A stretch of 64,000 nucleotides of DNA from Candidatus Marsarchaeota archaeon (GCA_023485295.1 JAMCZQ010000007.1:26335-90334); one strand, 5' to 3'; positions 5,449-19,244 are shown, counted from the first letter of the stretch. A program made the numbers and translations. The notes: generated by a model from the letters alone, not told the origin.

Positions 5449-5754
5449 TCAACTTAAGCTTATGGTTGCATCGAATATCCTTCCCGATTCAGCAAGCAGT
5501 CTCTGCTCCTCCATGCTGTTTATTGCATCGTTAATGGTTACATCGTCCATGCCAAGCCTTCTAAATATGTTTATTATGGCATCGCGCTTCAGGTTTATCT
5601 TTTCAAGCATTCCGGCAAAGGCTATGGCGTTTACGTGCCTGTGCATCTTCTCCATGTCTGAAAAGAGCTTCTCTATGCTGCTCTCATCTACCTTGTATAT
5701 GGTGAGCACCCTTCTCAGCTCCTGCCTGCTTATCACAAACGTATCCTTAGGCAT
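5449..5754 (-). CDS. Small helical protein, stand-alone paralog of the C-terminal ~62 aa of the adjacent ATPase
   Basis: 101-aa ORF whose start overlaps the ATPase stop by 8 nt. An ungapped alignment of YKVDESSIEKLFS...FRRLGMDDVTINDAINS to the ATPase tail YNVNVDSINKIFS...LKSLSIDDMLITRIISS gives about 16/62 identities. Confidence 0.6.
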   Translation of the reverse strand: MPKDTFVISRQELRRVLTIYKVDESSIEKLFSDMEKMHRHVNAIAFAGMLEKINLKRDAIINIFRRLGMDDVTINDAINSMEEQRLLAESGRIFDATISLS

Positions 5755-7273
5755 TCATAACACCTGTCGATGAAATAATCCTAGTTATAAGCATATCATC
5801 TATGCTGAGGCTCTTCAGGAACGACACTATGTCTGCATTCGTGACCCCGTTCGTTGCCATGAGCCTTACAAAGTCAAGTATCTTCAATGACCTGCCTTCG
5901 GTGTCAATGGTGCTGAATATCTTGTTTATAGAATCAACGTTCACATTATACTCTATGAACTTGTTCTTAAGCTCCTCTTCCTCAAACTGGTAATCGCGCT
6001 GTATAATGCCTGCACTGAGCTCGCTTTGCGTCAGCACATCTGACAGGTCTATTGTGTACACGTACAGCGGCTCCTCGCCCTTGACCCTGTCCAATACGAA
6101 TATTTCTGGGAACTGCAGCGATGTCTGGAAAGCCATGTTAACCGCGGCCTGCCCAACTCCAAATTTGCTTATCTCAGACCTTATGAAGTCTGAAAAATTA
6201 AGGGATCCCTGCACGTAGTCAAGGAACTTTTCGAACTTTATCCTTAGTATGAAGGATGTTCCCACGTTTGAGAATATTGCTTCGTTTATGTCTGTTGGGT
6301 TTTGTGACGCCACTATAAGGCCGAACTGGTACTTCCTGCCCTCCCTTACGATCATAACGGCATCGCTTTTTTCATCGCCTGCAATTTTCCACGCTTCATC
6401 AAGCACCACCAATGTGCGTATGCCCTTATTTTCGCTCCAGCCCTCGAATCGCATGCGCTCCTTTAACGTCTGCAGTATGAACAAGGCAGCAAGGGCCCTG
6501 AATCGTTCATCAGGCAGGCCGGACAGGTCTATATCAACCAGCCCTGAGCTTGCGAGCTTCTGCAGGTTTATTGTGCTTTTCCTTGAAAAATAATCCTCGC
6601 CCTCCCTTGCAAATTGCCTTAGCCTGTATATTGCATTTTCAAGCTCTGCAGGATATTCATAGGTGCCTTCCTGCAGCTGCTCCTCGAGTATCGATATCGC
6701 ATCCTTCAGGGTAGGCGCGTCTTTTCCTTCCGGCGCAGGCTCTGCTATGTTGAACCCTGCGTTGACATACGCCTGCTCTATAGCTTCTTCTGTGAGCCGC
6801 CTCTGCTCCGGATATGCTGCTATATCCGTCAGTATCTCAAAAGATGTCAGTATCTGCTTTGTCCTGTCCAGGGGTTTCATTCCTGAGAGGTCCATGATGT
6901 TTATATAGTCTCCTTTGCCTAGCGATACTATTACGCCGCCGCTCTGTTTTACCCATGCTTTGTACTCGGCAGCCCAGTCTATTATCACTGCATTTGTATC
7001 CCATATATAGCTGGCCCTTATTAGGAAAGTTTTCACGAAATAGCTTTTTCCCGCGCCTGTTATTCCTACAACTGCTATATGCGGGTTCGTGAGGTTCGTG
7101 AAAGACCAGCTGAACGGGACCTTGAACAGCTTCGTGCTTCCTATGTATATTGCCTTGAATGGGTCGTTTATCAATACGTTTGCAGGCGGCTCAGGGGGCC
7201 TTGACATGAAAGCCCTCTTCCCTATTTCATTGCTCATTATATGCTGCAATTTTAATATGGACATTATAATCAA
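5747..7273 (-). CDS. VirB4/TraC/TrbE-type (AAA_10/DUF87-like) secretion ATPase; a CedB-like candidate
   Basis: 508-aa ORF. Walker A GITGAGKS, IIDWAAEY, APTLKDAISILEE, Walker B VVLDEAWKI, REGRKYQFGLIVASQNPTDI. The DEAW plus RKY..Q..D pattern is VirB4-like rather than HerA-like. Confidence 0.75.
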   Translation of the reverse strand: MIIMSILKLQHIMSNEIGKRAFMSRPPEPPANVLINDPFKAIYIGSTKLFKVPFSWSFTNLTNPHIAVVGITGAGKSYFVKTFLIRASYIWDTNAVIIDWAAEYKAWVKQSGGVIVSLGKGDYINIMDLSGMKPLDRTKQILTSFEILTDIAAYPEQRRLTEEAIEQAYVNAGFNIAEPAPEGKDAPTLKDAISILEEQLQEGTYEYPAELENAIYRLRQFAREGEDYFSRKSTINLQKLASSGLVDIDLSGLPDERFRALAALFILQTLKERMRFEGWSENKGIRTLVVLDEAWKIAGDEKSDAVMIVREGRKYQFGLIVASQNPTDINEAIFSNVGTSFILRIKFEKFLDYVQGSLNFSDFIRSEISKFGVGQAAVNMAFQTSLQFPEIFVLDRVKGEEPLYVYTIDLSDVLTQSELSAGIIQRDYQFEEEELKNKFIEYNVNVDSINKIFSTIDTEGRSLKILDFVRLMATNGVTNADIVSFLKSLSIDDMLITRIISSTGVMNA

Positions 7274-8100
7274 CTCTCCTGGTCAAACATGTTTGTCAAT
7301 TCGCTGAACGTTGTCGGCAGTGAAAAATTGAAGTTGAATGTTGCATAAAGCTCCCTGCCAATGATCCTCTGCGTTGCCACATCGAAGGCGCTGAAATTCA
7401 GCTTAAGCTGCTCTATCTGGCCTTCCAGCGCGTCAAGAGCTGCCTTCTCCGACACTCCAATTGCAGTAGTCTCTATATACATGACCGTAGCTATCGGCTT
7501 TTCTCCCTGCGAGATTCTGTTTATCTTTGCCTGTATTGTATTGAGCTTTCTTTGGATATCTGATATTGTGACTTCGTTGGCATTGTTCTGCATGGCTCTT
7601 GAGAGCTGGAATTCCTGGTACGAACGTTTGCCTTCAAGCTCGTCCCTTATTCGCTGCACGTCCTGCCCTGCCGAAAGCACGTGGAATTTGAATGGAAAGT
7701 TTACGTTCATTACCATCTTTTCCCATGTGTCTGGGGCATTGGTCATTTTGTCCTCGTCATCCTCAGGCGCATTCTCCTCCCTGAAAGTGTAGCTGAATAG
7801 GTTCACGGCTATATACCCTGTTGCATAGAATATGCCGTTCACGTTCTTTATCACTGTGTTCTGCGCCTTGTTTATAAGGTAGTCCTTAGAAGGCTGGAAG
7901 CTAACACCCAGAATCGAGGTTATTGTTGAGAAGATCCTGTCATCAGCCCAATTCATTGCAAGTATGAAAATGGCTGTCAATACGAGTAGCAGTATCGCAA
8001 TCGCATGCAGTATGCCTTTTCCGAAAGCCGACAGGCCTACGAAAGCAAACAGTATTATTATAAGGCAGAAAAGCAGATACATGAGCTTGACTTCATCCAT
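7270..8100 (-). CDS. 2-TM plus soluble-domain protein, paralog of 8100..8933; candidate VirB3 / VirB4-N-domain-like partner of the ATPase
   Basis: 276-aa ORF with a 4-nt ATGA overlap with the ATPase gene. N-terminal hydrophobic hairpin. Shared pattern with its neighbour: VIKNVNGIFYATGYIAV versus ILKRVGDNFIATVYISI. Confidence 0.55.
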   Translation of the reverse strand: MDEVKLMYLLFCLIIILFAFVGLSAFGKGILHAIAILLLVLTAIFILAMNWADDRIFSTITSILGVSFQPSKDYLINKAQNTVIKNVNGIFYATGYIAVNLFSYTFREENAPEDDEDKMTNAPDTWEKMVMNVNFPFKFHVLSAGQDVQRIRDELEGKRSYQEFQLSRAMQNNANEVTISDIQRKLNTIQAKINRISQGEKPIATVMYIETTAIGVSEKAALDALEGQIEQLKLNFSAFDVATQRIIGRELYATFNFNFSLPTTFSELTNMFDQES

Positions 8101-8933
8101 TAGATCACTTGTTCTTGTATATTCTTGTTTATCTGCTCGGTTACCGTTGAAAATGGTATCAGGTATTCCGGCTCGACGAACTTGAGCAGGTCAGCTCCTG
8201 TTATTATGCTTGGCGGGACGCCGAACAGCGACCCTATCCCGGACATGAGCTCCCTGGCCTTTTGCTGGGCTATGCTTATGGCTTCGTACTCCTTGCTGCC
8301 TGTTGCTGACACTGTCACATAGGAAAGGAGCTCGAATGACAGGCTTTTGCTTATGCTGTCAAGCATGTTCCTCCACATTGCAAGCTTGCCCCTAACCCTC
8401 TCAAGGTCCTTTTTCGGGGCATTCTTGTCCTGCAGCTCAGCCTCCTCGTTTTCGGTCATGCTGATCGTTTCCCTGAGCTTCTGTATGTAATCATCCTTGT
8501 TCATCACATAGAGCTCCGTAGTGTACCTTGCCGGATCCTTAGAAAGGCCAACGAGCTTGCTTATCTGCATTGCAAAATCCAGCTTTTCTTCATCTTCCAT
8601 CTCTGTAGCAGACCTGTAGACAGGTATTGATATGTACACAGTGGCTATGAAATTGTCTCCGACCCTTTTAAGTATTGTGTCCTCGGTTTGCGACATCCAG
8701 TAAGCATTCTCCTTGCTAAGCACTATATGCCTTTTGTGCTGCTTTATAAGCGGTATTATAAGGTACGAATAGTACTTCGATGAAAATGCCAGTGCGTCAA
8801 AAATCATCGAAAGCAGTAGGAATATGATTTTTATGTAGGCTGGGATGAGCAGGTCCGGCGCCAGGATCACAACGCCAAGAAATATTGCCGATATAAACAA
8901 CAGCCCTACAAAAACCATCGATTGACTTGCCAT
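8100..8933 (-). CDS. 2-TM plus soluble-domain protein, paralog of 7270..8100; candidate VirB3 / VirB4-N-domain-like
   Basis: 277-aa ORF with a 1-nt TAATG overlap with the downstream gene. Two N-terminal TM segments, then a charged soluble domain. Confidence 0.55.
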   Translation of the reverse strand: MASQSMVFVGLLFISAIFLGVVILAPDLLIPAYIKIIFLLLSMIFDALAFSSKYYSYLIIPLIKQHKRHIVLSKENAYWMSQTEDTILKRVGDNFIATVYISIPVYRSATEMEDEEKLDFAMQISKLVGLSKDPARYTTELYVMNKDDYIQKLRETISMTENEEAELQDKNAPKKDLERVRGKLAMWRNMLDSISKSLSFELLSYVTVSATGSKEYEAISIAQQKARELMSGIGSLFGVPPSIITGADLLKFVEPEYLIPFSTVTEQINKNIQEQVI

Positions 8934-8983: not shown

Positions 8984-10636
8984 TCATATGAATCCGGCGC
9001 GAAGCCTTCCGCTCATCCTTGCAGTGCCTCCTATAAAGTTGGCGAGCTGCACTATGAATGCATATGTCACTGCGCTTATCAGGGCAGGGTAGAAGAGTAT
9101 CAAAAGCCAGAACGAATTTATCGTAGACTCTATGCTGCTTAGGTTTGTGACCAATGGGCTTGTGGATGTGAGGGCATTAAGCTCAGCTCCTCGTCCAGCG
9201 CCATACCTTGCAAGCAATGCCGATTCGGCATTGAGCTGCGTAATCAGGTGCGGTGCCGTAAAGTAGAAAGCGACTGCAAACAACAGCGGCATTACAAAGT
9301 AAAAGCCTGCCGCAGTCGCTATGAGTATGCCACCAAGCGATCTGGTTGGAAGTATTGCCCTCAATATCACGCCAGGCACCAGGAATACAGGTATTGCGGC
9401 CACGGCAAAGAATACTATAAGGTAATATTCCGCGTACAACGCAAGTATGCCGTCTGCTATGAACGAAGTTATGACTGCCGTCGGCTCTATGTAGAATATA
9501 TCCAATCCCAAGAACGCAAGCGGCACTATCTCGTTGGTTATGTTGGCTGCAGGATACGCTGGCGTCGATATTGTCGCCTTGATTGACGATAAATACATAT
9601 CATAGAAATATGTGCGGAACAATTCGTTATAAACGTTTTCTGCTGAGTTTATTGTCGTGGTTATAAGGTGCAAAGCAGTTGCGTAGGGGTTTATCGCCCC
9701 AACGAAAACGCCAGGCACCAGGCCGAATACAACTGCGCTTATGTAAAGGAATAGCACCACAATAATGGCGCTCGCAATCGCCTCATAAAGCTCCCCTACT
9801 CCGAAATTCCTTATCCTGCTGTTTTTGGTAGCTGCCCCAACCATAAATATGCCTCCTGCAATGAGGAAAGCTATAAGCACCACTATTATGGCTATTGGTA
9901 TGTAGCCCTGCCACGAGAAGTATATAGATTCGTTTATCGGGCAGTACCATGGCTCAGTGCTCTGAATTGTCTGTTCCAAGCTTGGAGGGAGCAGCCCGCA
10001 CCTGAGCGGCGGCGGCGTAGGCGTCGGGGTGCACGCAATCATATTGCTCGGGCAGCCGTTCGACGGGCCTGTAGTCTGATAGCTGCAGTCGGTAGGGCAG
10101 CTAAACCCTGTTGTTGGATTTACGCAGGTGTCGCAGCTGTAATATGCGGTGGATGTGCTTGTGGTGGAAGTGGTCGTGCTGCTTGTCGTAGACGTAGTTG
10201 AAGTGCTGGTTGTAGAAGTAGTAGAACTGGATGTTGAAGTAGTAGAGGTTGTTGTAAATATTGTGGATGTAGTGGTCCTGATTGTAGAAGTGGTCGTGGT
10301 ATGGAAAGCAATGCACTCTTCTTCAACACCGCCATGCGGGCACCTATTCGGAAGCACTTTGCAGTACCCATTGCATGGATAAAGTTCGCCGCAAAAGTCG
10401 CAATATGTCGTCATTATTGGATCGGAAAGCAGCTTTTCCGTAGACATTGTAAAAATTGCATAGGCCGGCTCGCCCTGGGTCTGTGACGACTGCGCGAAAG
10501 ATAAGCCGCCAGATATTTTCTGGATTCCAGAGCCTTGGCTCAATCCAACATTAGCATAGCCCAGCGCATAACCAATGATTACCGCTAGAATTGCAATGTA
10601 TACTGCATAGCTTACCAATCTCTTGTCGTAGTTCAA
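8984..10636 (-). CDS. Polytopic membrane protein, paralog family member (candidate VirB6/CedA-like) with an N-terminal Cys-rich plus Thr/Ser-rich ectodomain
   Basis: 550-aa ORF. Family motifs NFGVGELYEAIASAIIVVLF and ILPTRSLGGILIATAAGFYFVMPLLF. Many TM segments. Confidence 0.65.
   Translation of the reverse strand: MNYDKRLVSYAVYIAILAVIIGYALGYANVGLSQGSGIQKISGGLSFAQSSQTQGEPAYAIFTMSTEKLLSDPIMTTYCDFCGELYPCNGYCKVLPNRCPHGGVEEECIAFHTTTTSTIRTTTSTIFTTTSTTSTSSSTTSTTSTSTTSTTSSTTTSTTSTSTAYYSCDTCVNPTTGFSCPTDCSYQTTGPSNGCPSNMIACTPTPTPPPLRCGLLPPSLEQTIQSTEPWYCPINESIYFSWQGYIPIAIIVVLIAFLIAGGIFMVGAATKNSRIRNFGVGELYEAIASAIIVVLFLYISAVVFGLVPGVFVGAINPYATALHLITTTINSAENVYNELFRTYFYDMYLSSIKATISTPAYPAANITNEIVPLAFLGLDIFYIEPTAVITSFIADGILALYAEYYLIVFFAVAAIPVFLVPGVILRAILPTRSLGGILIATAAGFYFVMPLLFAVAFYFTAPHLITQLNAESALLARYGAGRGAELNALTSTSPLVTNLSSIESTINSFWLLILFYPALISAVTYAFIVQLANFIGGTARMSGRLRAGFI
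10148..10300 (-). repeat. Low-complexity Thr/Ser-coding tract (51 codons, TTTTSTIRTTTSTIFTTTSTTSTSSSTTSTTSTSTTSTTSSTTTSTTSTST)
   Basis: Read directly from the translation. At DNA level it is an imperfect gtng/gtag-type reiteration on the plus strand. Confidence 0.9.
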
Positions 10637-10646
10637 TCCATTACAC

Positions 10647-11693
10647 CTATATGAAGTTTGACAGCAGCTCCATGAAGCTCACCCTTTCTCCAACAGCTTT
10701 TGAAAAGTCAATTATAAATGCATCAAGTATGACAAAGTTTATGAAAGGAATAAAGGTAAGGCCGACTATCGCATATCCGAAGCCGCTTATTATGCTCGTA
10801 GGTATAAGCGATACCGTGCCTGTAGCCACGAATTCTAAGAAATCAGCTATTCCAGCAGGTAGTATTGATATCAGACCGGCTCCTGAAAGCATGTTCACGT
10901 TTATGAAGCCGTATGTGATGCTTATGAGCAGCGGGTATACAATCCCAAGGCCCAGGCCAAACGCAATCATGGCTCCGCCAAACGTCCTGGTAAAGCCGAA
11001 TACCCTGGCGATTAGCCCTATTGTAAGGAAGAACGTAAGGAACAGTATCGAGCCGGATATTAGCAGCAGCTGCAGGTTATTCAGCACAAGCATGAAGACG
11101 AGCCCGGAAAGGGCAAGGCCGATATAGCCCTCCAGGCCTGCAGGATAAACGCTGTTTAGGGTGGTGCTTATCTTAAGGCCCAAAATGGGCTGCAGCCCAA
11201 GGGAAAAGCCCGGCGATTGCCCTGCAACAAGCGCCAAGACGTCAACGAATTCGAAATACGAGAACGCGTTGTTGGTAAAAGTGCCTATATCACATGCTGA
11301 AAGCGAGAAAAGCGTGTTTATGCTTGCAGTATTGCATTCTTTAGGGAGCAGCCCTACGCTGTTGTACGCATTCACTGGATTAATCAGGAAAACGTAGAAC
11401 AGCCCAAGGAATATTGCAAGCAGCATAAGCGATATTAATGCCTCGTATATCTGCACCTTTGCCCAGTTCTTCGCATTCTGGCTGTATATCGTGCTGCCGA
11501 GCATGTATACAAATGCGGCAACGAATATGACTATGAGCACCGCGATTATTGCGATTGACATTCCGCCTGCAGGCGGGAACACCCCGTAGTATATCGAAGT
11601 GGTGGTAGTGCTTGCGCCAGCTATATTCGGAATAAGCGCGAGTGCTACTGCTAAAAGCACCGCAACTGCTGTTACATCTCTGATCTTGCTCAT
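10647..11693 (-). CDS. Polytopic membrane protein, paralog family member (candidate VirB6/CedA-like)
   Basis: 348-aa ORF with a signal-peptide-like N-terminus. Motifs NWAKVQIYEALISLMLLAIF and VFGFTRTFGGAMIAFGLGLGIVYPLL. Confidence 0.65.
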   Translation of the reverse strand: MSKIRDVTAVAVLLAVALALIPNIAGASTTTTSIYYGVFPPAGGMSIAIIAVLIVIFVAAFVYMLGSTIYSQNAKNWAKVQIYEALISLMLLAIFLGLFYVFLINPVNAYNSVGLLPKECNTASINTLFSLSACDIGTFTNNAFSYFEFVDVLALVAGQSPGFSLGLQPILGLKISTTLNSVYPAGLEGYIGLALSGLVFMLVLNNLQLLLISGSILFLTFFLTIGLIARVFGFTRTFGGAMIAFGLGLGIVYPLLISITYGFINVNMLSGAGLISILPAGIADFLEFVATGTVSLIPTSIISGFGYAIVGLTFIPFINFVILDAFIIDFSKAVGERVSFMELLSNFI

Positions 11694-12778
11694 ATGACTC
11701 CTCTCAATGCCTTCGACGTGCTCAGGCTCGGCGCGCCTAGGAAATCACCTACAGTTTCAGCGAAATCAAGCGAAAACATTATTGCTAAGATCGTGCCGAG
11801 CAGCAGGTACATTACAGGCGTGACAACAGATTCTATGAATTCTGTCACAACATTCCCGTGTATGAAGGATATAAGTGCGCTCAAGTCGCTAACAGGGTTG
11901 AAAATCGTTGTTATGGTGAACGGATCAGAAGTCAAAGCCGTTACTGTAACGGCAGTTATGGGCGGCATCGTTGCTACAAACGCTATGATCAGCGGAAGGA
12001 AAATGTAGAATCCTATAAATAACCCAAGGAAAGCCCCGCCAGCCGCGCGAGTCCATGGTATGGTGCGCAGAACTATCCCGACATAGAGGAATATCGGGAA
12101 AAGGCTGTATATCAGCGACAAAAGCACGGCCACTCCGAAAAGCAAGGCTATTATAACTCCTGTAAAGCTTATCAGCAGCTTCAATATCTGCGTAATGAAA
12201 TAAGCGCCGTAATACGGCGAGAAGCCAATTCCCCAATAATTGGGGTGCAGGCCTATGGACGTAGATGCCAGAAGCGAATAGAAATCGGATTCTACTGCCA
12301 AAGCCCTGAAAGCACCGAGCGTATTGAATGCAGTGCTAGCCACACTGACACAGTCGTTTGTAAAGATGCCTGTCCAGTCATATTTGGCCAGCACCCCGCT
12401 TTTGCCTATCGTGCTTCCTGTTGCGGAAAGCACGCCAAGAAATATCAGGATTATGAGTACGGTTATTACTGCCTCGCCTATCTCGGATTTTGCAAAGCTT
12501 GTAAGTTTATCTATGTTAAATGCATACCCTATTGCAAATGCCATGCCAGCTATCGTGAGCATTATCATAATGATCAATCCAGACAGCACGATTACGCCGC
12601 CTGCAATGGAAGTGTTCCCTATTACGCTATTGCTCGAAGCAGTAGTAGGAATAAGGCTGCTGCAAAGGTTTGTCGCGGACGAGCCGAAGCTGAAATTGGC
12701 AAGCATAAGCAAGGCCATTAGCGCTAGGGCTGCAATCCCTGCGTGCTTCCTTAATGACATGCTGCCGTACATCTGCAT
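11690..12778 (-). CDS. Polytopic membrane protein, paralog family member (candidate VirB6/CedA-like)
   Basis: 362-aa ORF with a 4-nt overlap with the downstream gene. Motifs SFAKSEIGEAVITVLIILIF and TIPWTRAAGGAFLGLFIGFYIFLPLI. Confidence 0.65.
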   Translation of the reverse strand: MQMYGSMSLRKHAGIAALALMALLMLANFSFGSSATNLCSSLIPTTASSNSVIGNTSIAGGVIVLSGLIIMIMLTIAGMAFAIGYAFNIDKLTSFAKSEIGEAVITVLIILIFLGVLSATGSTIGKSGVLAKYDWTGIFTNDCVSVASTAFNTLGAFRALAVESDFYSLLASTSIGLHPNYWGIGFSPYYGAYFITQILKLLISFTGVIIALLFGVAVLLSLIYSLFPIFLYVGIVLRTIPWTRAAGGAFLGLFIGFYIFLPLIIAFVATMPPITAVTVTALTSDPFTITTIFNPVSDLSALISFIHGNVVTEFIESVVTPVMYLLLGTILAIMFSLDFAETVGDFLGAPSLSTSKALRGVI

Positions 12779-14259
12779 CAGACCAATTTTGACAGGCCTG
12801 CAAGGGCCGTATCGCCTCCCATGAGGCCGGATATGCCTATTATCCCGCTCAGCACTATTATGAGATTTATTATAGGTATGAAATATGCCGATATTCCAAG
12901 CACTCCATAAGTCCTCACCAGCATGTAATATCCGTTCAGTGCCTGCGTTTCAGTGCACCCCTGCGGCAGCCCGGAAATGTCAGGCGCAACAGGCACAGAA
13001 TGATTTATAAGGGCAAGCAGCTGCGTTGCAAGCCCGGTAAAAGGTATCAGCAAATAGCTCGTGTCTTCAACCTCCGCATTAAGCAGGTTTCCGTCTGCCG
13101 GCCAGCATCCAGTGCTTTTCGTAGCGTTCGCTACGCTCGGCATGACGTAGAAGTTTGTCACATAAGGCCTGCCTGTGCTATTTGGTATGTAATAAGTCGA
13201 ATTCGTGAAAAGGTTGCCGAACCCGTAATAAGCGCCAAGGTCATTCGAATTGTATGTGAATGGGGTTGTGCTGGTTGGCGGCGTATAGCCCATGAGTGCA
13301 CCAAGGCCATGGCCTAGGTACAGGTATTCTATGGAGAATACCAGCGGGAAGAACAATATTGCGCCTATGCCTATGGCTATCAGCAGCCCGCCTATCTTTC
13401 TTGTAAAGGGCAGTACCCTGAGTATGACGCCGCCAAATATAAGGTACGGCCATATATATAGGAAGATAGAAGTTAAGGTGAGCTGCGCTATAAAGCTCTC
13501 AAGCGCAAGCGTCATCAGCACGCCTATGCTGTCGAGGGATTTGTACACCAGCCTAAGCCCAGCATATGGGGAATTTTGATAGTGTATGAACAGGTCAGCC
13601 TCTGTAGGCGCTGGAAGCATGCACTGCACAGATATTGGAGAAGGTGGCTCAGGCGATATGCATATGTTTATCTGCGGGCTCAGGTGCTCCAGGTAACCAA
13701 TGAAAGCGTCGAATATAAAATACGAGTTTAGGTTGAGCGCAGTCTGGTTCGTAAGGTTTGCTATCACTACTCCTGATGCAGCAAGCGGGTAGTCCGCCTT
13801 CTCAGTAAATGTATTCTGCTTTGCCACTATGTTGCAAAGCCCAGGAAAGCCAGTTGGATTCTTGGAGAACAGCAGCGAGCTTCCTGTAAGCGACTTTGAG
13901 GCATTCAGCACCGAAAGCTGCGAACTTTCGTTTATGCCATTGCACAAGCTTAGGACATTCGCCGGGTTCATGAGCGCCGTTGAGGAAGTTACGGAATAGA
14001 ACGCATCCCCGAATATCACCAGCACGCTTACCAGCAGCACTACAAGCACCGCAGTGCCTATGAGCTGGTAAAATTCTGTCATGGCCGACGACTTCACCCT
14101 GGCGTTGCCAAGTATTGCGCCTGCCATATACCATGCTCCAACTATGGCTCCATCAAGCACTATGGCTATTGCTATGAGCGGGAACAGAGATGAGTATACC
14201 CCGTGGAATGCAGAAATCTGCAGCAATATCGGTATAAGCAACATCATAAGCTCGCCCAA
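12778..14259 (-). CDS. Polytopic membrane protein, paralog family member (candidate VirB6/CedA-like)
   Basis: 493-aa ORF. Motifs AMTEFYQLIGTAVLVVLLV and VLPFTRKIGGLLIAIGIGAILFFPLVF. 1-nt overlap at 12778. The start may instead be the Met at 14244, giving a 1-nt overlap with the upstream stop. Confidence 0.65.
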   Translation of the reverse strand: MGELMMLLIPILLQISAFHGVYSSLFPLIAIAIVLDGAIVGAWYMAGAILGNARVKSSAMTEFYQLIGTAVLVVLLVSVLVIFGDAFYSVTSSTALMNPANVLSLCNGINESSQLSVLNASKSLTGSSLLFSKNPTGFPGLCNIVAKQNTFTEKADYPLAASGVVIANLTNQTALNLNSYFIFDAFIGYLEHLSPQINICISPEPPSPISVQCMLPAPTEADLFIHYQNSPYAGLRLVYKSLDSIGVLMTLALESFIAQLTLTSIFLYIWPYLIFGGVILRVLPFTRKIGGLLIAIGIGAILFFPLVFSIEYLYLGHGLGALMGYTPPTSTTPFTYNSNDLGAYYGFGNLFTNSTYYIPNSTGRPYVTNFYVMPSVANATKSTGCWPADGNLLNAEVEDTSYLLIPFTGLATQLLALINHSVPVAPDISGLPQGCTETQALNGYYMLVRTYGVLGISAYFIPIINLIIVLSGIIGISGLMGGDTALAGLSKLV

Positions 14260-16004
14260 AATGACGCAACACCCTCTATGCCGGCATCAAGAGACCGCGC
14301 AAGGCCCATGGCAAATCCTATTGCAACTGCAAGGTTTAAGCCAAATAGGAATACAGCAAGAAATATAAATTCAGACATGTTCTGGATTATGTACGAAGCT
14401 ACAGACACTATAGGAACCCTCAGCGTAGCATACAGCGACGAGCTAAGAAGGTTGTTCGTGACCGGAGTGGATACGCCCAGGCCAGAGCCGAAAATGGAGA
14501 ATAGGCTGTTTTTGCTTGAGGTGATAAGCGTATTGCTTTCCAAGAAAGAAGAGCTCGGAAGAGCTGGAAGCACGTATGCAGTGCTCAGGCAGTTGGTGCA
14601 GCCGTACAGCGGATTCAGCGATGGCGTGTATATCCAATAAATTATGTAGCTGTCGAAAGCTATCATCAGCGGGTAAATTATGTATATCGCTATCGCTATT
14701 GCCAGCACCGCGTTAGAAATCGTTCGAAGGCCTGTGCCGCCGTATGGTATAAACCTTAGTACTAGCGCAACAGGCAGCAGCACTGTAAAAGCAGTATACT
14801 CAAATATGGGCAGCGCCAGGTACTGAAGGAACAGCATGCCTATAGTTATTATCAGTATTGGAGAGAGCGCGTCGAAATACACATCAGAAAGAGAGCCGTA
14901 TAATGTTCCAAAGTCATGCGCATACGATATGGTTACGCTGAATACCCCTCCAATGGTCGGAGATATGCTAAGGTCTTGAGAAAGCACTGTAAATATCCTG
15001 CCGACTATCGCATACCTTATAGAGGTCTGGTAAACGTAGCCTATCAGGTTTATGCCTCGATTCAATGCCAGTGTGCCTATGTAATAATCCGCATATTCGA
15101 ATGGCGTAAGCCCTGTAACTCCAGTGACTCCTGCTGCGGAAAGCACCTTCGAGCCGAGAGAAGCGGAAAGATTGCATGCTGATGTAGTAAGCGAAAGCAG
15201 CACGAGCAGTATTACTATGCTTATAACAAGCTGCGTTATCTCAACCCTTGTTATCTGTGTAAGCCTTACGCGCAAGGATGTTGGCATGAACCTGCTTATC
15301 ATGAAAATAAATGCCACTACAAGGAAACCAAAAAGGATAATTATGTAATTTATCGGAAGCCACCCTGCTATGTAAGGAGAGCCAGGCCCGCCGTAAATGC
15401 TGCAGTAGTTTACTGCAGGCACTACTGTTGTGAAAGTTGTGCTTGTCGTGGAGCTTGTCGATGTTGTCGTAGTAGAGCTAGTAGTGGACGATGTTGTCGA
15501 TGTTGTTGTAGACGTCGTAGAAGTCGTAGAAGTCGTAGATGTTGTCGATATTATTGTAGAGGAAGTTGTTTTTACCGTGCTGGTGGTGGAGCTTGTGGTG
15601 GTTTTGCTCGATTCGCAGGTGCCAAGCCTATATCCACTGTTGGAGAGGACGCATTCTCCACTGCTTGTTTTTGTAATATATTGCGCCTTGGAGTTTGCCA
15701 CGCAGCTGTAGCCTGTATCGCATGAAGAATAGCCGCAATATCCATTAGGCGCATTTATTAGGCAGCTGCTTCCTGCACCGCCAAACACTGGCTGGCTTAT
15801 CAAAGTGCTGTTTTGAACATCTGCAGTTTTGGAATATGCAGTATTAGGCACAATGCTATCTTGGTGGGCCGGCACCATTACAGGCGAGCTTTTTGCCGTT
15901 AAGCTGCTTGCAATATGGCTTCCGGCATATAAGAACGAAGCTACTGCTACAGCTATTATAATCATGTAAATAACTGCAGTCAATGCTTTATTATGCAAAC
16001 TCAC
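14244..16004 (-). CDS. Polytopic membrane protein, divergent paralog family member with an N-terminal Cys-rich plus Thr/Ser-rich ectodomain
   Basis: 586-aa ORF. Divergent core motif FIPYGGTGLRTISNAVLAIAIAIYIIYPLMIAF. N-terminal TM, six Cys within about 50 aa, then a 62-aa T/S tract. Confidence 0.65.
   Translation of the reverse strand: MSLHNKALTAVIYMIIIAVAVASFLYAGSHIASSLTAKSSPVMVPAHQDSIVPNTAYSKTADVQNSTLISQPVFGGAGSSCLINAPNGYCGYSSCDTGYSCVANSKAQYITKTSSGECVLSNSGYRLGTCESSKTTTSSTTSTVKTTSSTIISTTSTTSTTSTTSTTTSTTSSTTSSTTTTSTSSTTSTTFTTVVPAVNYCSIYGGPGSPYIAGWLPINYIIILFGFLVVAFIFMISRFMPTSLRVRLTQITRVEITQLVISIVILLVLLSLTTSACNLSASLGSKVLSAAGVTGVTGLTPFEYADYYIGTLALNRGINLIGYVYQTSIRYAIVGRIFTVLSQDLSISPTIGGVFSVTISYAHDFGTLYGSLSDVYFDALSPILIITIGMLFLQYLALPIFEYTAFTVLLPVALVLRFIPYGGTGLRTISNAVLAIAIAIYIIYPLMIAFDSYIIYWIYTPSLNPLYGCTNCLSTAYVLPALPSSSFLESNTLITSSKNSLFSIFGSGLGVSTPVTNNLLSSSLYATLRVPIVSVASYIIQNMSEFIFLAVFLFGLNLAVAIGFAMGLARSLDAGIEGVASFWASL
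15426..15611 (-). repeat. Low-complexity Thr/Ser-coding tract (62 codons, SSKTTTSSTTSTVKTTSSTIISTTSTTSTTSTTSTTTSTTSSTTSSTTTTSTSSTTSTTFTT)
   Basis: Read directly from the translation. Confidence 0.9.
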
Positions 16005-16006
16005 AC

Positions 16007-17308
16007 CTATGCAATCTTGAATTTACCGACGCCCAAGCTCAGCTTTCCGCCAAGCATGCTTGCTATCGCGCCTGCAATCACCAGCGTTATCACAAGATCC
16101 AATATTATCAATATGAATTGAAAGAGCACAGGCGTTCCATAAAACCCTATGATATTGAATGCCGGATATATTGCGCCATGCCCTGAGAGCATAATGGCCA
16201 TGCCCCCACCCCAGCCGTTTTCAAAGGAATTTGCATACAAGTTCGCGTTTGGGTCACCGGCAGTTTGTGCATCTACAAGTATATCTGAGGCAGTGCCGTA
16301 AGTCGGATATGCTATAACGCAAAGCGCATCTGTGAATAACGATTCCGCAGAAATACCGCTTCCAAAACAGGTTACTGTCGGTGCAGTGTTCTGCTGATAC
16401 AGTATTGGCTGTATGTAATTTGTCATAGGTACATTGAATACAACCAGCATTGCTGGAAAGATGAGCCCTATTGCCATGCCGATTGCTATGAAGCTGCCTC
16501 CGAGCCCACGAAGGAACGGTATGGCGCGGAACACTATGCCTATTGGCAGGAATAGCGCCAGGCCTATGAGCACTATGTAATAAAGGAGGCTGCTGAGGGT
16601 TTCAAGCACAAAGTAAACAGGTATAAACACTACTTCTATGAAGTCCTTTATAAAAGAGTAGTTCGGCAGCTCTAAATTTGACTCTATTACAGAGCTGCTC
16701 AGAAATCCAGAAGACGACCCGAACTGCAGTGCCCCAACGAAAGGTATCGGTATGGGTATCCATGTCAATACTGCAGTGCTCTTAAGCTCTCCTACAGAGG
16801 AAGAAAGGCCTTCGAACGCGTAGAAGCTCTCATTGAGCATCAGCATTGTCGGATCAATGTATGCGCTGTAATCAACCGCATAAAGCTGGTTCAAATTATC
16901 GGAAACGCTGCTGTAAGCACTACTATTCAGCGGCAACGAGACGACAGGCACACTGCTACCAGCAAGAGCAAGCGCTATTGCGCCAACGATAATAAGTATT
17001 GCAAAGATCAAAACAATCAGAAGAGCGCTTTTCGCCGCTTCATAAAGCTCTCCTTGGTACCAGTTCCTCAGCGACCCTATCTGCAGGACGTTTCCCACCA
17101 TGAAGGCTATGCCTATCAGCAGGAAAGAAAGAAGAAGGCCTATAAGCGCAAGCGGTATTGCCCCGGCAATGCAAAGTCCTACGTTAGACGAAGTAGTCGA
17201 AATGCCTGTAAACGGGCATGTCACCGATGTTGTGCTCTGTGCACTGCTAATCGATGCCAATAATACAAAGGCCATGAACGCCGCGATATACGCAGGTTTT
17301 AGTCGCAT
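16007..17308 (-). CDS. Polytopic membrane protein, paralog family member (candidate VirB6/CedA-like)
   Basis: 433-aa ORF with signal peptide MRLKPAYIAAFMAFVLLASISSAQS. Motifs NWYQGELYEAAKSALLIVLIF and AIPFLRGLGGSFIAIGMAIGLIFPAML. Confidence 0.65.
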   Translation of the reverse strand: MRLKPAYIAAFMAFVLLASISSAQSTTSVTCPFTGISTTSSNVGLCIAGAIPLALIGLLLSFLLIGIAFMVGNVLQIGSLRNWYQGELYEAAKSALLIVLIFAILIIVGAIALALAGSSVPVVSLPLNSSAYSSVSDNLNQLYAVDYSAYIDPTMLMLNESFYAFEGLSSSVGELKSTAVLTWIPIPIPFVGALQFGSSSGFLSSSVIESNLELPNYSFIKDFIEVVFIPVYFVLETLSSLLYYIVLIGLALFLPIGIVFRAIPFLRGLGGSFIAIGMAIGLIFPAMLVVFNVPMTNYIQPILYQQNTAPTVTCFGSGISAESLFTDALCVIAYPTYGTASDILVDAQTAGDPNANLYANSFENGWGGGMAIMLSGHGAIYPAFNIIGFYGTPVLFQFILIILDLVITLVIAGAIASMLGGKLSLGVGKFKIA

Positions 17309-18213: not shown

Positions 18214-18619
18214 GCTTCAACCTCGCGAATCAGCAATATGACTTTATTGCGGACTCTGAGTTTCCTGTCAGGATTGCCAGTATGAACGGCGCGAGTTCTG
18301 CTATTATTACTCCTATTACGCCTCCTACTACCATTCCCATACCATATCCTTGTATGGAACCCTTGCTTTGTCCTGGCATTATGTGTGCAGCTGCATATAG
18401 CGCTCCTCCAAGCACTATCAGTGCCAGTCCCAATATGAATATACCGATGCTTATAGCACTGTATATTGGGCATATAACGCTGGTTATCGTTGCAAATGCG
18501 TTAGGCGCTGCGTATGATACGGTCGATGCGAATGCAAGCATTGGCAGTACCATCAGTACTATTCGGAAGACTTTCGAGTGCAATAGGTTCACTATTGACA
18601 GTAGTTTGGTCTCTAACAT
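18185..18619. repeat. Tandem direct repeat, unit A (period 577 bp), covering the pilin-like CDS plus its 3' hairpin
   Basis: I aligned it by eye to 18762..19196. It is identical except at 18488, 18562, 18608, 18611 and 18614. Confidence 0.9.
18230..18619 (-). CDS. VirB2/TrbC-like pilin candidate, copy A (signal peptide plus helix-loop-helix hydrophobic hairpin)
   Basis: The track ORF 18230..18628 starts at a GTG; the likely start is the ATG at 18619 (MLETKLL), preceded by AAGGTG. Leader ...MLAFASTVSYA/AP. Mature part: SVICPIY..ISIGIFILGLALIVLGGALYAAA - HIMPGQSKGSIQGYG - MGMVVGGVIGVIIAELAPFILAILTGNS. Confidence 0.65.
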   Translation of the reverse strand: MLETKLLSIVNLLHSKVFRIVLMVLPMLAFASTVSYAAPNAFATITSVICPIYSAISIGIFILGLALIVLGGALYAAAHIMPGQSKGSIQGYGMGMVVGGVIGVIIAELAPFILAILTGNSESAIKSYC

Positions 18620-18665
18620 TTCGTACACCTTTATACATCTTTAATTTAATTTCTTAAATAGCACA

Positions 18666-18675
18666 ATTTAAATAA
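18666..18675 (-). promoter_or_regulatory. TATA-like box (minus strand TTATTTAAAT) about 47-56 nt upstream of the copy A ATG
   Basis: Sits in the context GCGAAACTTATTTAAATT, matched by ACGAAAGGTATTTAATTT at the same spacing upstream of copy B. Confidence 0.35.
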
Positions 18676-18754
18676 GTTTCGCAATAAGTCTTGCAATACT
18701 GCGCACGTGCAGCAAACCTGCTTTGTATAGCTGTGGAACATAAAAAAATAGGAA

Positions 18755-18790
18755 CAAAAATAAAAATGCAGCCTGCATTTTCATGCAGGC
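18755..18790 (-). terminator. Hairpin plus T-runs just 3' of pilin-like copy B
   Basis: Same 8-bp stem (18771..18778 / 18783..18790). On the minus strand it is followed by TTTTTATTTTTGTT. Confidence 0.5.
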
Positions 18791-19196
18791 GCTTCAACCT
18801 CGCGAATCAGCAATATGACTTTATTGCGGACTCTGAGTTTCCTGTCAGGATTGCCAGTATGAACGGCGCGAGTTCTGCTATTATTACTCCTATTACGCCT
18901 CCTACTACCATTCCCATACCATATCCTTGTATGGAACCCTTGCTTTGTCCTGGCATTATGTGTGCAGCTGCATATAGCGCTCCTCCAAGCACTATCAGTG
19001 CCAGTCCCAATATGAATATACCGATGCTTATAGCACTGTATATTGGGCATATAACGCTGGTTATTGTTGCAAATGCGTTAGGCGCTGCGTATGATACGGT
19101 CGATGCGAATGCAAGCATTGGCAGTACCATCAGTACTACTCGGAAGACTTTCGAGTGCAATAGGTTCACTATTGACAGTAGTTTTGTTTCCAACAT
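18762..19196. repeat. Tandem direct repeat, unit B
   Basis: See unit A. Confidence 0.9.
18807..19196 (-). CDS. VirB2/TrbC-like pilin candidate, copy B
   Basis: The track ORF 18807..19238 extends further upstream, but the homologous ATG (MLETKLL) is at 19196 and is preceded by AAGGTG. The protein differs from copy A by one Ile/Val in the leader. Confidence 0.65.
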   Translation of the reverse strand: MLETKLLSIVNLLHSKVFRVVLMVLPMLAFASTVSYAAPNAFATITSVICPIYSAISIGIFILGLALIVLGGALYAAAHIMPGQSKGSIQGYGMGMVVGGVIGVIIAELAPFILAILTGNSESAIKSYC

Positions 19197-19244
19197 TTTT
19201 GTACACCTTGACATTTCTTGAATTGAATCATTCAGCAATCATAA

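Follow-up and report, generated by a model that had tools for sequence, protein, structure and literature searches.

A duplicated pair of hairpin membrane proteins in Micrarchaeota as candidate VirB4 N-domain-like adaptors for a separately encoded motor

Introduction

What holds a VirB4-class motor at its membrane complex when the motor gene encodes no N-terminal domain? VirB4 is the only component present in all type IV secretion and conjugation machines, and its N-terminal domain (N-domain) fastens the motor to the membrane complex. The question is raised by a gene cluster in a 64,000-nucleotide stretch of archaeal DNA (GCA_023485295.1 JAMCZQ010000007.1:26335-90334, listed as Candidatus Marsarchaeota archaeon), here called the window, in which genes for two paralogous membrane proteins, A and B, lie directly upstream of a gene for a short motor ATPase. 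The window belongs to Micrarchaeota (DPANN) from acid mine tailings: a metagenome search located its sequence in mine-tailings and mine-drainage metagenomes, and homologues are listed under names like Candidatus Micrarchaeaceae and Ca. Mancarchaeum. An initial annotation, made from the sequence alone, had proposed that A and B are a VirB3-VirB4 N-domain module that was detached from the ATPase and duplicated. Our analysis suggests that A and B are membrane-anchored, VirB4-N-domain-like adaptors tethering a separate motor, a reading to which we assign a probability of about 0.6.

In the R388 system, VirB4 is present as twelve subunits, arranged as a hexamer of dimers in which only the N-domains hold each dimer together; the central VirB4 has its N-domain wrapped by VirB3, and that of the outer subunit is bound by the tails of VirB8 (PMC9259494, PMC12857230). 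The N-domain of TrwK, the R388 VirB4 protein, comprises residues 15-400 (PMC9259494). CedB and CedD have N-domains that each correspond to a different portion of the one in VirB4 (PMC11868833), while TrsD, found in monoderm plasmids and Patescibacteria, is a free VirB4-N-like protein encoded beside VirB4 (PMC12102498). VirB4-like ATPases have been mentioned in nanohaloarchaea (PMC10266531), and we found no description of the Micrarchaeota A/B-ATPase module in the searchable literature.

Results

The motor gene encodes no VirB4-type N-domain

All three genes under study lie on the minus strand, and window coordinates are used throughout:

8100-8933, minus strand: paralog A (P0003, 277 amino acids (aa)), with a hairpin at about aa 7-52 and a soluble alpha/beta domain at aa 62-277 (nucleotides 8103-8750).
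7270-8100, minus strand: paralog B (P0002, 276 aa), with a hairpin at aa 3-51 and a soluble alpha/beta domain at aa 64-276 (nucleotides 7273-7911).
5747-7264, minus strand: motor ATPase of the VirB4/HerA/CedB class, 505 aa from an ATG, within an open reading frame (ORF) that covers 5747-7273 from a TTG (508 aa); identified by Pfam, NCBIfam and PDB sequence matches.

The ATPase carries a Walker A motif, GITGAGKS, at residues 70-77 of the 508-aa ORF (nucleotides 7043-7066) and a Walker B motif, LVVLDEAW, at residues 288-295 (nucleotides 6389-6412). The initial annotation had described a 508-aa protein beginning about 70 residues before Walker A. While the ORF from the TTG is real and the motif lies where described, the actual product is probably the 505-aa protein starting at ATG 7264, because its orthologues (71-86% identical) are mostly 500-507 aa long and because this ATG, which lies 5 nt after the TGA stop of B (7272-7270), has the sequence GGAGAG 9-14 nt upstream.

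The protein passes the Pfam cut-offs for DUF87 (the HerA central domain; 3e-16), AAA_10 (1.6e-13) and P-loop_TraG (1.9e-10). When compared with NCBIfam, it was matched by VirB4 and TraC models over their C-terminal half only:

ATPase residues 41-329: positions 393-672 of 752 of the CD1110 VirB4 model.
ATPase residues 59-373: positions 426-738 of 800 of the TraC model.
ATPase residues 52-332: positions 422-683 of 792 of the VirB4_CagE model.

The CedB and CedD models likewise matched the motor half only, with CedD giving the best NCBIfam match. Relative to a canonical VirB4, the ATPase thus has nothing equivalent to the first 390-420 or so residues, so that the absence of a VirB4-type N-domain, as claimed initially, is borne out. 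All equivalog scores were far under their cut-offs, so the protein does not belong to CedB, CedD, TraC or HerA proper. Among PDB sequences, the longest match was the VirB4 C-terminal domain 4ag5, and the best-scoring ones were HerA structures. Hydropathy analysis revealed no transmembrane helix in the ATPase, and the protein ends in a helical C-terminal appendage of about 100 aa. Judged by these comparisons, it is a soluble motor of the VirB4/HerA/CedB class without an N-domain.

As a separate observation, a 33-nt segment at the start of the ATPase gene (7222-7254) recurs with 2 mismatches in three metagenome runs, on further contigs that are 3-4 kb long and differ in depth. The flanks of these copies resemble the equivalent stop/start junction in related Micrarchaeota species, and the two flanks differ from each other, so the copies are unlike a CRISPR array.

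A and B are old paralogs with a membrane hairpin and a predicted cytoplasmic domain

The two upstream genes had been described as encoding paralogs of 276 and 277 aa, each with a two-helix hairpin followed by a soluble domain. On this the ORFs, BLASTP, hhalign, and AlphaFold 2 (AF2) models and hydropathy all agree. The start of B and the stop of A share 1 nt. The proteins are 23% identical over nearly their full length (E 9e-5, BLASTP), the shared sequence blocks quoted in the initial annotation are present in both, and aligning the A family to the B family with hhalign gave 253 columns at E 1e-5 and a probability of 82%. By these measures A and B are genuine, old paralogs and no chance match. 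Searches yielded 163 homologues of A (about 277 aa) and 249 of B (about 276-278 aa); both families are conserved, with a mean column identity of 63-68% and a very constant length.

Hydropathy identified two hydrophobic N-terminal helices in each protein, which in the AF2 model of B span residues 3-26 and 30-51. To judge on which side of the membrane the remainder of the chain lies, we compared its composition with that of other proteins encoded in the window. Charged residues make up 27% of the soluble domain of A and 23% of that of B, as against 19-26% in cytoplasmic proteins of the window and about 9% in two clear ectodomains of the cluster, one of which has 26 sequons. A and B contain no Cys and 0-2 sequons, and the 15 residues past the second transmembrane helix contain on average 3.1 (A) and 1.6 (B) lysines plus arginines. 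B has few basic residues near its hairpin, and one conserved Lys in the inter-helix loop. From the charge content, lack of Cys, scarcity of sequons and basic residues after the second helix we conclude that the hairpin is N-in/C-in, as in VirB3, and, by composition and the positive-inside rule, that the domain of about 200 aa is cytoplasmic; an extracellular location was rejected on composition.

Putative adaptor and motor genes are separate in an old arrangement

We next consider whether a fusion between these genes could be hidden by a frameshift or by read-through. Contigs from four metagenome runs (two studies) cover the gene junctions with zero insertions or deletions. Across loci, A and B in most cases either overlap by 1 or 4 nt or lie 0-8 nt apart, and the frame offset from B to the ATPase is distributed 29/28/19 over the three frames. 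Since this offset varies freely among species and the four metagenome assemblies are free of indels, a hidden fusion was rejected. In addition, we searched 1.84 billion representatives with a joint A+B profile (E<=0.001), which gave 190 matches. Among the best 150 of these 190, which were listed, there was no fusion to an ATPase, no protein of ATPase length and no VirB4; apart from three longer proteins (317, 366 and 369 aa), all were stand-alone proteins of about 240-283 aa or fragments.

The arrangement is also conserved. A one-genome-per-species scan yielded 161 encoded relatives, and 80 of the corresponding loci were used together with two Mancarchaeum loci, gene order in the resulting 82 being read by ORF calling and phmmer. 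The order A-B-ATPase was found in 80 of the 82 Micrarchaeota loci; the two others each lack one gene and are presumably cut off at a contig end. Moreover, family members co-occur with an ATPase in four more distant archaeal lineages (L100, L103, L104 and L105). A lack of such co-occurrence had been named at the outset as a result that would speak against the proposal, and co-occurrence is what we observed.

In L100 and L103, a pilin-like gene is accompanied by one membrane protein homologous to all six of the membrane-protein paralogs encoded upstream of A in the window (in L100 a 337-aa protein, E 3e-8 to 2e-3 against the six), one family member and then an ATPase of 395 or 442 aa, respectively. 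L105 has one family member and a 525-aa ATPase, and L104 has six membrane paralogs, two family members and a 502-aa ATPase. In L100, L103 and L105 the family member lies directly upstream of the ATPase. A maximum-likelihood tree gave the A clade and the B clade 100/100 support each, both nested inside a wider family, with a single-copy clade (about 240 aa) lying far from both; the single-copy relatives are more like B than like A. The distant single-copy loci thus indicate that the arrangement of separate adaptor and motor is old and that the A/B duplication is lineage-specific. A separate, one-adaptor arrangement is ancestral in this archaeal family. Of the idea that the module was detached and duplicated, the duplication therefore stands, while fission is not supported, as the deep single-copy relatives are already separate; the parts may have separated by fission or may never have been fused.

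L100 (6563-13903) and L103 (7492-15366) carry what looks like a minimal version of the cluster, whose last gene product has about 750 aa. The L100 version of this product shows no obvious transmembrane-like stretch on reading its sequence and contains GLPGSGKT, a Walker A motif, so that a second ATPase may be encoded there. In the window, the same position is occupied by a 783-aa glycoprotein-like bitopic protein. We also observed that the adaptor (from one to two) and the VirB6-like membrane protein (from one to six; window 8984-17308 versus L100:6980-7993) seem to have expanded in the same lineage, with L104 having two and six, which hints at a co-evolved heteromeric platform.

Fold comparison points to TrwK/VirB4 at sub-threshold E-values

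To compare the soluble domains with known structures, A and B were modelled separately, with the alignment for A also including B-family sequences. The AF2 model of A (aa 62-277), based on a 146-sequence alignment, reached a predicted local distance difference test score (pLDDT) of 78.6, and that of full-length B, based on a 32-sequence B-family alignment, reached 73. When the soluble domain of A was compared with the PDB using Foldseek, ranks 1-11 were all R388 TrwK/VirB4 chains (7o41_A, 7o42_A, 8rtb_A, 8rtd, 7o43), with E-values from 6.9e-3 to 0.18, probabilities of 0.57-0.98, 170-202 aligned columns and 13-17% identity. The best of these were 7o41_A by E-value (6.9e-3) and 7o42_A and 8rtb_A by probability (0.97-0.98). 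For the B model, the TrwK chains 8rtd_h/V/P gave the highest query TM-score (0.33 over 191 columns); nothing fell under E 0.04, and TrwK came only at rank 25 by E-value.

The top 50 matches of A included neither 4ag5 nor any other RecA-type or P-loop ATPase, and the other weak matches were small alpha+beta sandwich domains. From this we infer that the TrwK region matched by the model of A lies in the N-domain (residues 15-400). Structures with a HerA HAS-barrel or a VirB8-like/NTF2 fold were absent from the fold matches, and these folds were rejected for A and B, which also have two transmembrane helices, where VirB8 has one, and a cytoplasmic composition. A chance top match to the exact protein predicted by the gene context, at rank 1 for A and with the top TM-score for B, would be very unlikely. 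On these models, the soluble domains of A and B are likely to have a fold similar to VirB4, while their homology to the VirB4 N-domain is plausible but unproven.

Evidence against a relationship with the VirB4 N-domain

A number of results weigh against the reading of A and B as VirB4-N-domain-like adaptors, beginning with the fold comparison itself. The Foldseek E-values exceed 0.001, the TM-scores are 0.30-0.36 and the root-mean-square deviations are large; the 11 TrwK matches are copies of one protein and so count as one single match; the output does not give the aligned TrwK region, which makes the placement in the N-domain indirect; and the A/B domain, in which about 180 residues are ordered, reaches half the TrwK N-domain's size.

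The sequence-level tests point the same way. When A, B and 35 family members were searched against Pfam with E-values up to 10, there was no match to PF03135, on which TrwK itself scores 4.5e-35, and A and B had no match in NCBIfam, its TrsD/TraD model included. The best match to VirB3 (PF05101), found for B, had an E-value of 3.9 and is noise. PDB sequence searches, using single sequences and profiles of A and B, found neither VirB4 nor any other meaningful match. For profile-profile comparison with hhalign, we built a VirB4 N-domain profile of 15 MPF-T sequences, from R388 TrwK (L085:2738-5209) and plasmid homologues, and a TrsD profile of 7 sequences, from pSK41 (L106:25886-26569) and relatives, and compared three versions of the family alignment with the VirB4 N-domain, its halves (15-200 and 201-400), TrsD, the N-region of TrsE and the TraC N-domain. 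All comparisons stayed at noise level, with probabilities <=1.4% for the VirB4 N-domain, its halves and TrsD (1.3% for the TrsD profile). The scores of A and B (18-20) overlap or slightly exceed those of column-shuffled controls (8-18.5), and an unrelated ATPase family scored 17-21. In the same assay, the positive control, TrsD against the VirB4 N-domain, gave a probability of 90-92%, which means that the method works. A and B are thus, at the level of sequence, not members of the PF03135, PF05101 or TrsD families, and the similarity to VirB4 N-domains expected by the initial annotation is missing there; at the level of fold, TrwK was the best and only consistent PDB match of the soluble domain.

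We note a weak collinear alignment of the soluble part of B (18-186) to TrwK 28-184, which was discounted as being no better than shuffled and unrelated controls. The positive control also yielded an observation on TrsD itself. TrsD 47-216 aligned with TrwK 30-201, upstream of the PF03135 region (178-382), and showed no similarity to residues 201-400, so that the VirB4 N-domain behaves as two sequence modules, the first of which corresponds to TrsD.

The surrounding cluster

The A-B-ATPase genes belong to a larger block, whose other relevant features are:

18230-19238, minus strand: two tandem genes for VirB2/TrbC-like pilins, which open the cluster (ORFs, weak Pfam match).
8984-17308, minus strand: six paralogous genes for polytopic, VirB6/CedA-like membrane proteins, directly upstream of A (ORFs).
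5449-5754, minus strand: a 101-aa gene that overlaps the ATPase stop, encoding a stand-alone paralog of the ATPase C-terminal appendage.

The entire cluster is syntenic between the window and Ca. Mancarchaeum acidiphilum, where it is flanked, as in the window, by a carbamoyltransferase gene and topoisomerase VI-B; the block there runs pilin, 243-aa protein, six membrane paralogs, A, B, ATPase and five more genes. The same six membrane paralogs are syntenic in this species and in L104. The conserved flanks and synteny indicate that the cluster is core chromosomal and not a mobile element. The six VirB6/CedA-like proteins are presumed to be the channel or platform to which the A/B-ATPase module docks. 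Evidence of co-transcription was sought, and the only runs containing the window sequence were DNA metagenomes.

With regard to the smaller genes, the pilin-like protein at 18230-18628 (minus strand) is a weak match to Pfam TrbC/VIRB2 (E 0.011; its score of 16.4 bits is under the family cut-off, 27.9). Residues 11-80 of the 101-aa protein are 26% identical to ATPase residues 433-502 over 70 aa (E 7e-6, BLASTP; the appendage corresponds to 5747-5990), and in 16 of the 82 loci a downstream ORF of about 105 aa was also matched by the ATPase query (phmmer).

Discussion

Taken together, these data are best explained by A and B being membrane-anchored adaptors for a separate motor. The machine to which they belong would be a chromosomal secretion or DNA-transfer apparatus, related to type IV secretion and Ced and conserved throughout Micrarchaeota. 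A and B would each insert a hairpin with the N-in/C-in topology of VirB3 and present to the cytoplasm an alpha/beta domain (about 200 aa) with a fold resembling part of the N-domain of bacterial VirB4, while the downstream gene would supply only the soluble RecA-type motor, equivalent to the VirB4 C-terminal domain. In this way, the roles of bacterial VirB3 and of the two halves of VirB4 would be spread over three polypeptides. A and B probably assemble into a hetero-oligomeric collar, which may be the equivalent of the R388 N-domain dimer joining central and outer VirB4; such a collar would tether one hexameric motor ring to the six-paralog VirB6-like platform, and couple the hydrolysis of ATP to assembly of the pilus and/or transfer of substrate. 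The oligomeric state, contacts and stoichiometry of A and B in this scheme are inferred, as is the heteromeric docking ring proposed in the initial annotation. The duplication would have arisen in the lineage in which the membrane protein went from one to six copies. The A/B module would then work like a VirB3-VirB4N module, and may descend from one.

A more specific version of this proposal is tentative, and we regard it as doubtful. Here, an A-B heterodimer would replace the dimer of central and outer N-domains, so that, with the docking half permanently handed to two transmembrane subunits, one motor ring would suffice; the filament by which Micrarchaeota reach Thermoplasmatales hosts would have an asymmetric, heteromeric base; and a minimal core of pilin, one VirB6-like protein, one adaptor and a short ATPase would be the ancestral form of the machine in archaea, with the duplication of the adaptor occurring together with the expansion of the VirB6-like platform from one to six.

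The strongest competitor, which we consider unlikely without dismissing it, is that A and B, as membrane adaptors or regulators specific to this lineage, are unrelated to the VirB4 N-domain, their likeness in fold being generic (a beta-sheet with a helical hairpin) or convergent; they might still tether or regulate the ATPase. It would account for every sequence and profile test being negative while the TrsD control works, for Foldseek values below threshold and for an exhaustive profile search that returned only stand-alone proteins and no VirB4 among the 150 listed of 190 matches. What it leaves to coincidence is that a random sub-threshold match should fall on the one PDB protein predicted by context, at the top for A and by TM-score for B, next to a motor whose missing N-domain leaves exactly that role vacant.

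Somewhat less probable again is a history in which A and B, accessory subunits of the TrsD type, at no time belonged to the ATPase, a HerA/CedB-like motor that never had an N-domain, and in which they serve assembly, gating or substrate recruitment and not docking. The separate state of the genes in every lineage sampled, deep single-copy relatives included, the want of a fused form among the 150 listed of 190 matches, the precedent of TrsD as a known stand-alone VirB4-N-like protein (PMC12102498), and an ATPase that scores as well with the HerA and CedD models as it does with those of VirB4 would all fit such a history. TrsD systems, however, keep an N-region of about 250 aa on TrsE together with a separate VirB3-like TrsC, whereas the Micrarchaeota motor has neither membrane anchor nor N-region and A and B carry the only adjacent transmembrane hairpins; this account also differs from the one we favour mainly in history and emphasis. 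The idea that the soluble domains form an extracytoplasmic scaffold, VirB8-like or pseudo-periplasmic, linking the platform to the pilus or cell surface and not to the ATPase, seems highly improbable: VirB8-type scaffolds are common in such machines, and the paucity of basic residues near the hairpin of B, with its one conserved Lys between the helices, would suit it, but a charged content of 23-27% lies in the cytoplasmic range and not near the 9% that ectodomains of this acidophile cluster show, Cys is absent, sequons number 0-2 against 26 in a neighbouring ectodomain, lysine and arginine are enriched after the second helix, and the fold matches include no VirB8 or NTF2 structure for what are proteins with two transmembrane helices, not one.

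Reading A and B as VirB4-N-domain-like adaptors, we can set the module beside known systems. It resembles R388 VirB3 (TrwM) and the VirB4 (TrwK) N-domain (PDB 7o41, 8rtb, 8rtd) in that a two-helix hairpin is encoded beside the motor gene, TrwK is the best match to the fold of the cytoplasmic domain and the downstream ATPase corresponds to the VirB4 C-terminal motor. It differs in that the hairpin is joined to the N-domain-like module, while VirB3 is a separate protein of 10-15 kDa; in that this module is separate from the motor gene, is present as two diverged paralogs and has about half the size of the TrwK N-domain; and in having no detectable sequence similarity to PF03135 or PF05101. The likeness to VirB3 seen in the initial annotation has topology and gene position as its sole basis: A and B have two transmembrane helices, N-in/C-in, and adjoin the motor gene, but at 31 kDa, with an extra domain of 200 aa, and with a PF05101 match at noise level, they depart from VirB3 in size and sequence.

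The closest analogues of the module are TrsD and CedB/CedD. TrsD/TraD, from MPF-FATA plasmids (pSK41, pGO1) and Patescibacteria, is likewise a stand-alone protein of about 200-230 aa encoded immediately upstream of a VirB4-like ATPase; its relationship is to the first portion of the VirB4 N-domain, and it is widespread in ultra-small, host-dependent bacteria, the counterpart of DPANN archaea. Unlike A and B with their hairpins, TrsD is soluble, without a transmembrane helix, and adjoins a separate VirB3-like TrsC, and the TrsE VirB4 (672 aa) retains its N-region where the Micrarchaeota motor has none. The Ced DNA-import system found in Sulfolobales (and also TedB) is, similarly, an archaeal apparatus derived from type IV secretion systems, with a VirB2-like pilin, VirB6-like channel paralogs and VirB4/HerA-class motors, in which the functions of the VirB4 N-domain are split over two paralogous proteins and transmembrane helices replace VirB3 and VirB8. 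There, however, transmembrane segment, N-domain part and ATPase are in one chain and the whole ATPase is duplicated, whereas here one motor is accompanied by two motor-less N-domain proteins. Finally, VirB3-VirB4 fusions (Campylobacter pTet, IncX plasmids) have hairpin and N-domain in one chain, which A and B mimic, but the ATPase is in the same polypeptide and the fusion is single-copy. The new element is therefore the partition, with hairpin and N-domain-like module in one gene, the motor in another, and the first gene duplicated.

A natural, separate, membrane-anchored and duplicated N-domain-like half would constitute a dissected system for studying how the N-domain docks and controls the motor, and would extend to DPANN archaea the theme set by TrsD in Patescibacteria and CedB/CedD in Sulfolobales. 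Because two cultivable members carry the locus, Ca. Micrarchaeum sp. A_DKE (L006) and Ca. Mancarchaeum acidiphilum (L002), the prediction is testable in culture. Chromosomal and phylum-wide, the cluster stands out as a leading candidate for the apparatus by which these obligate symbionts make cell-to-cell contact.

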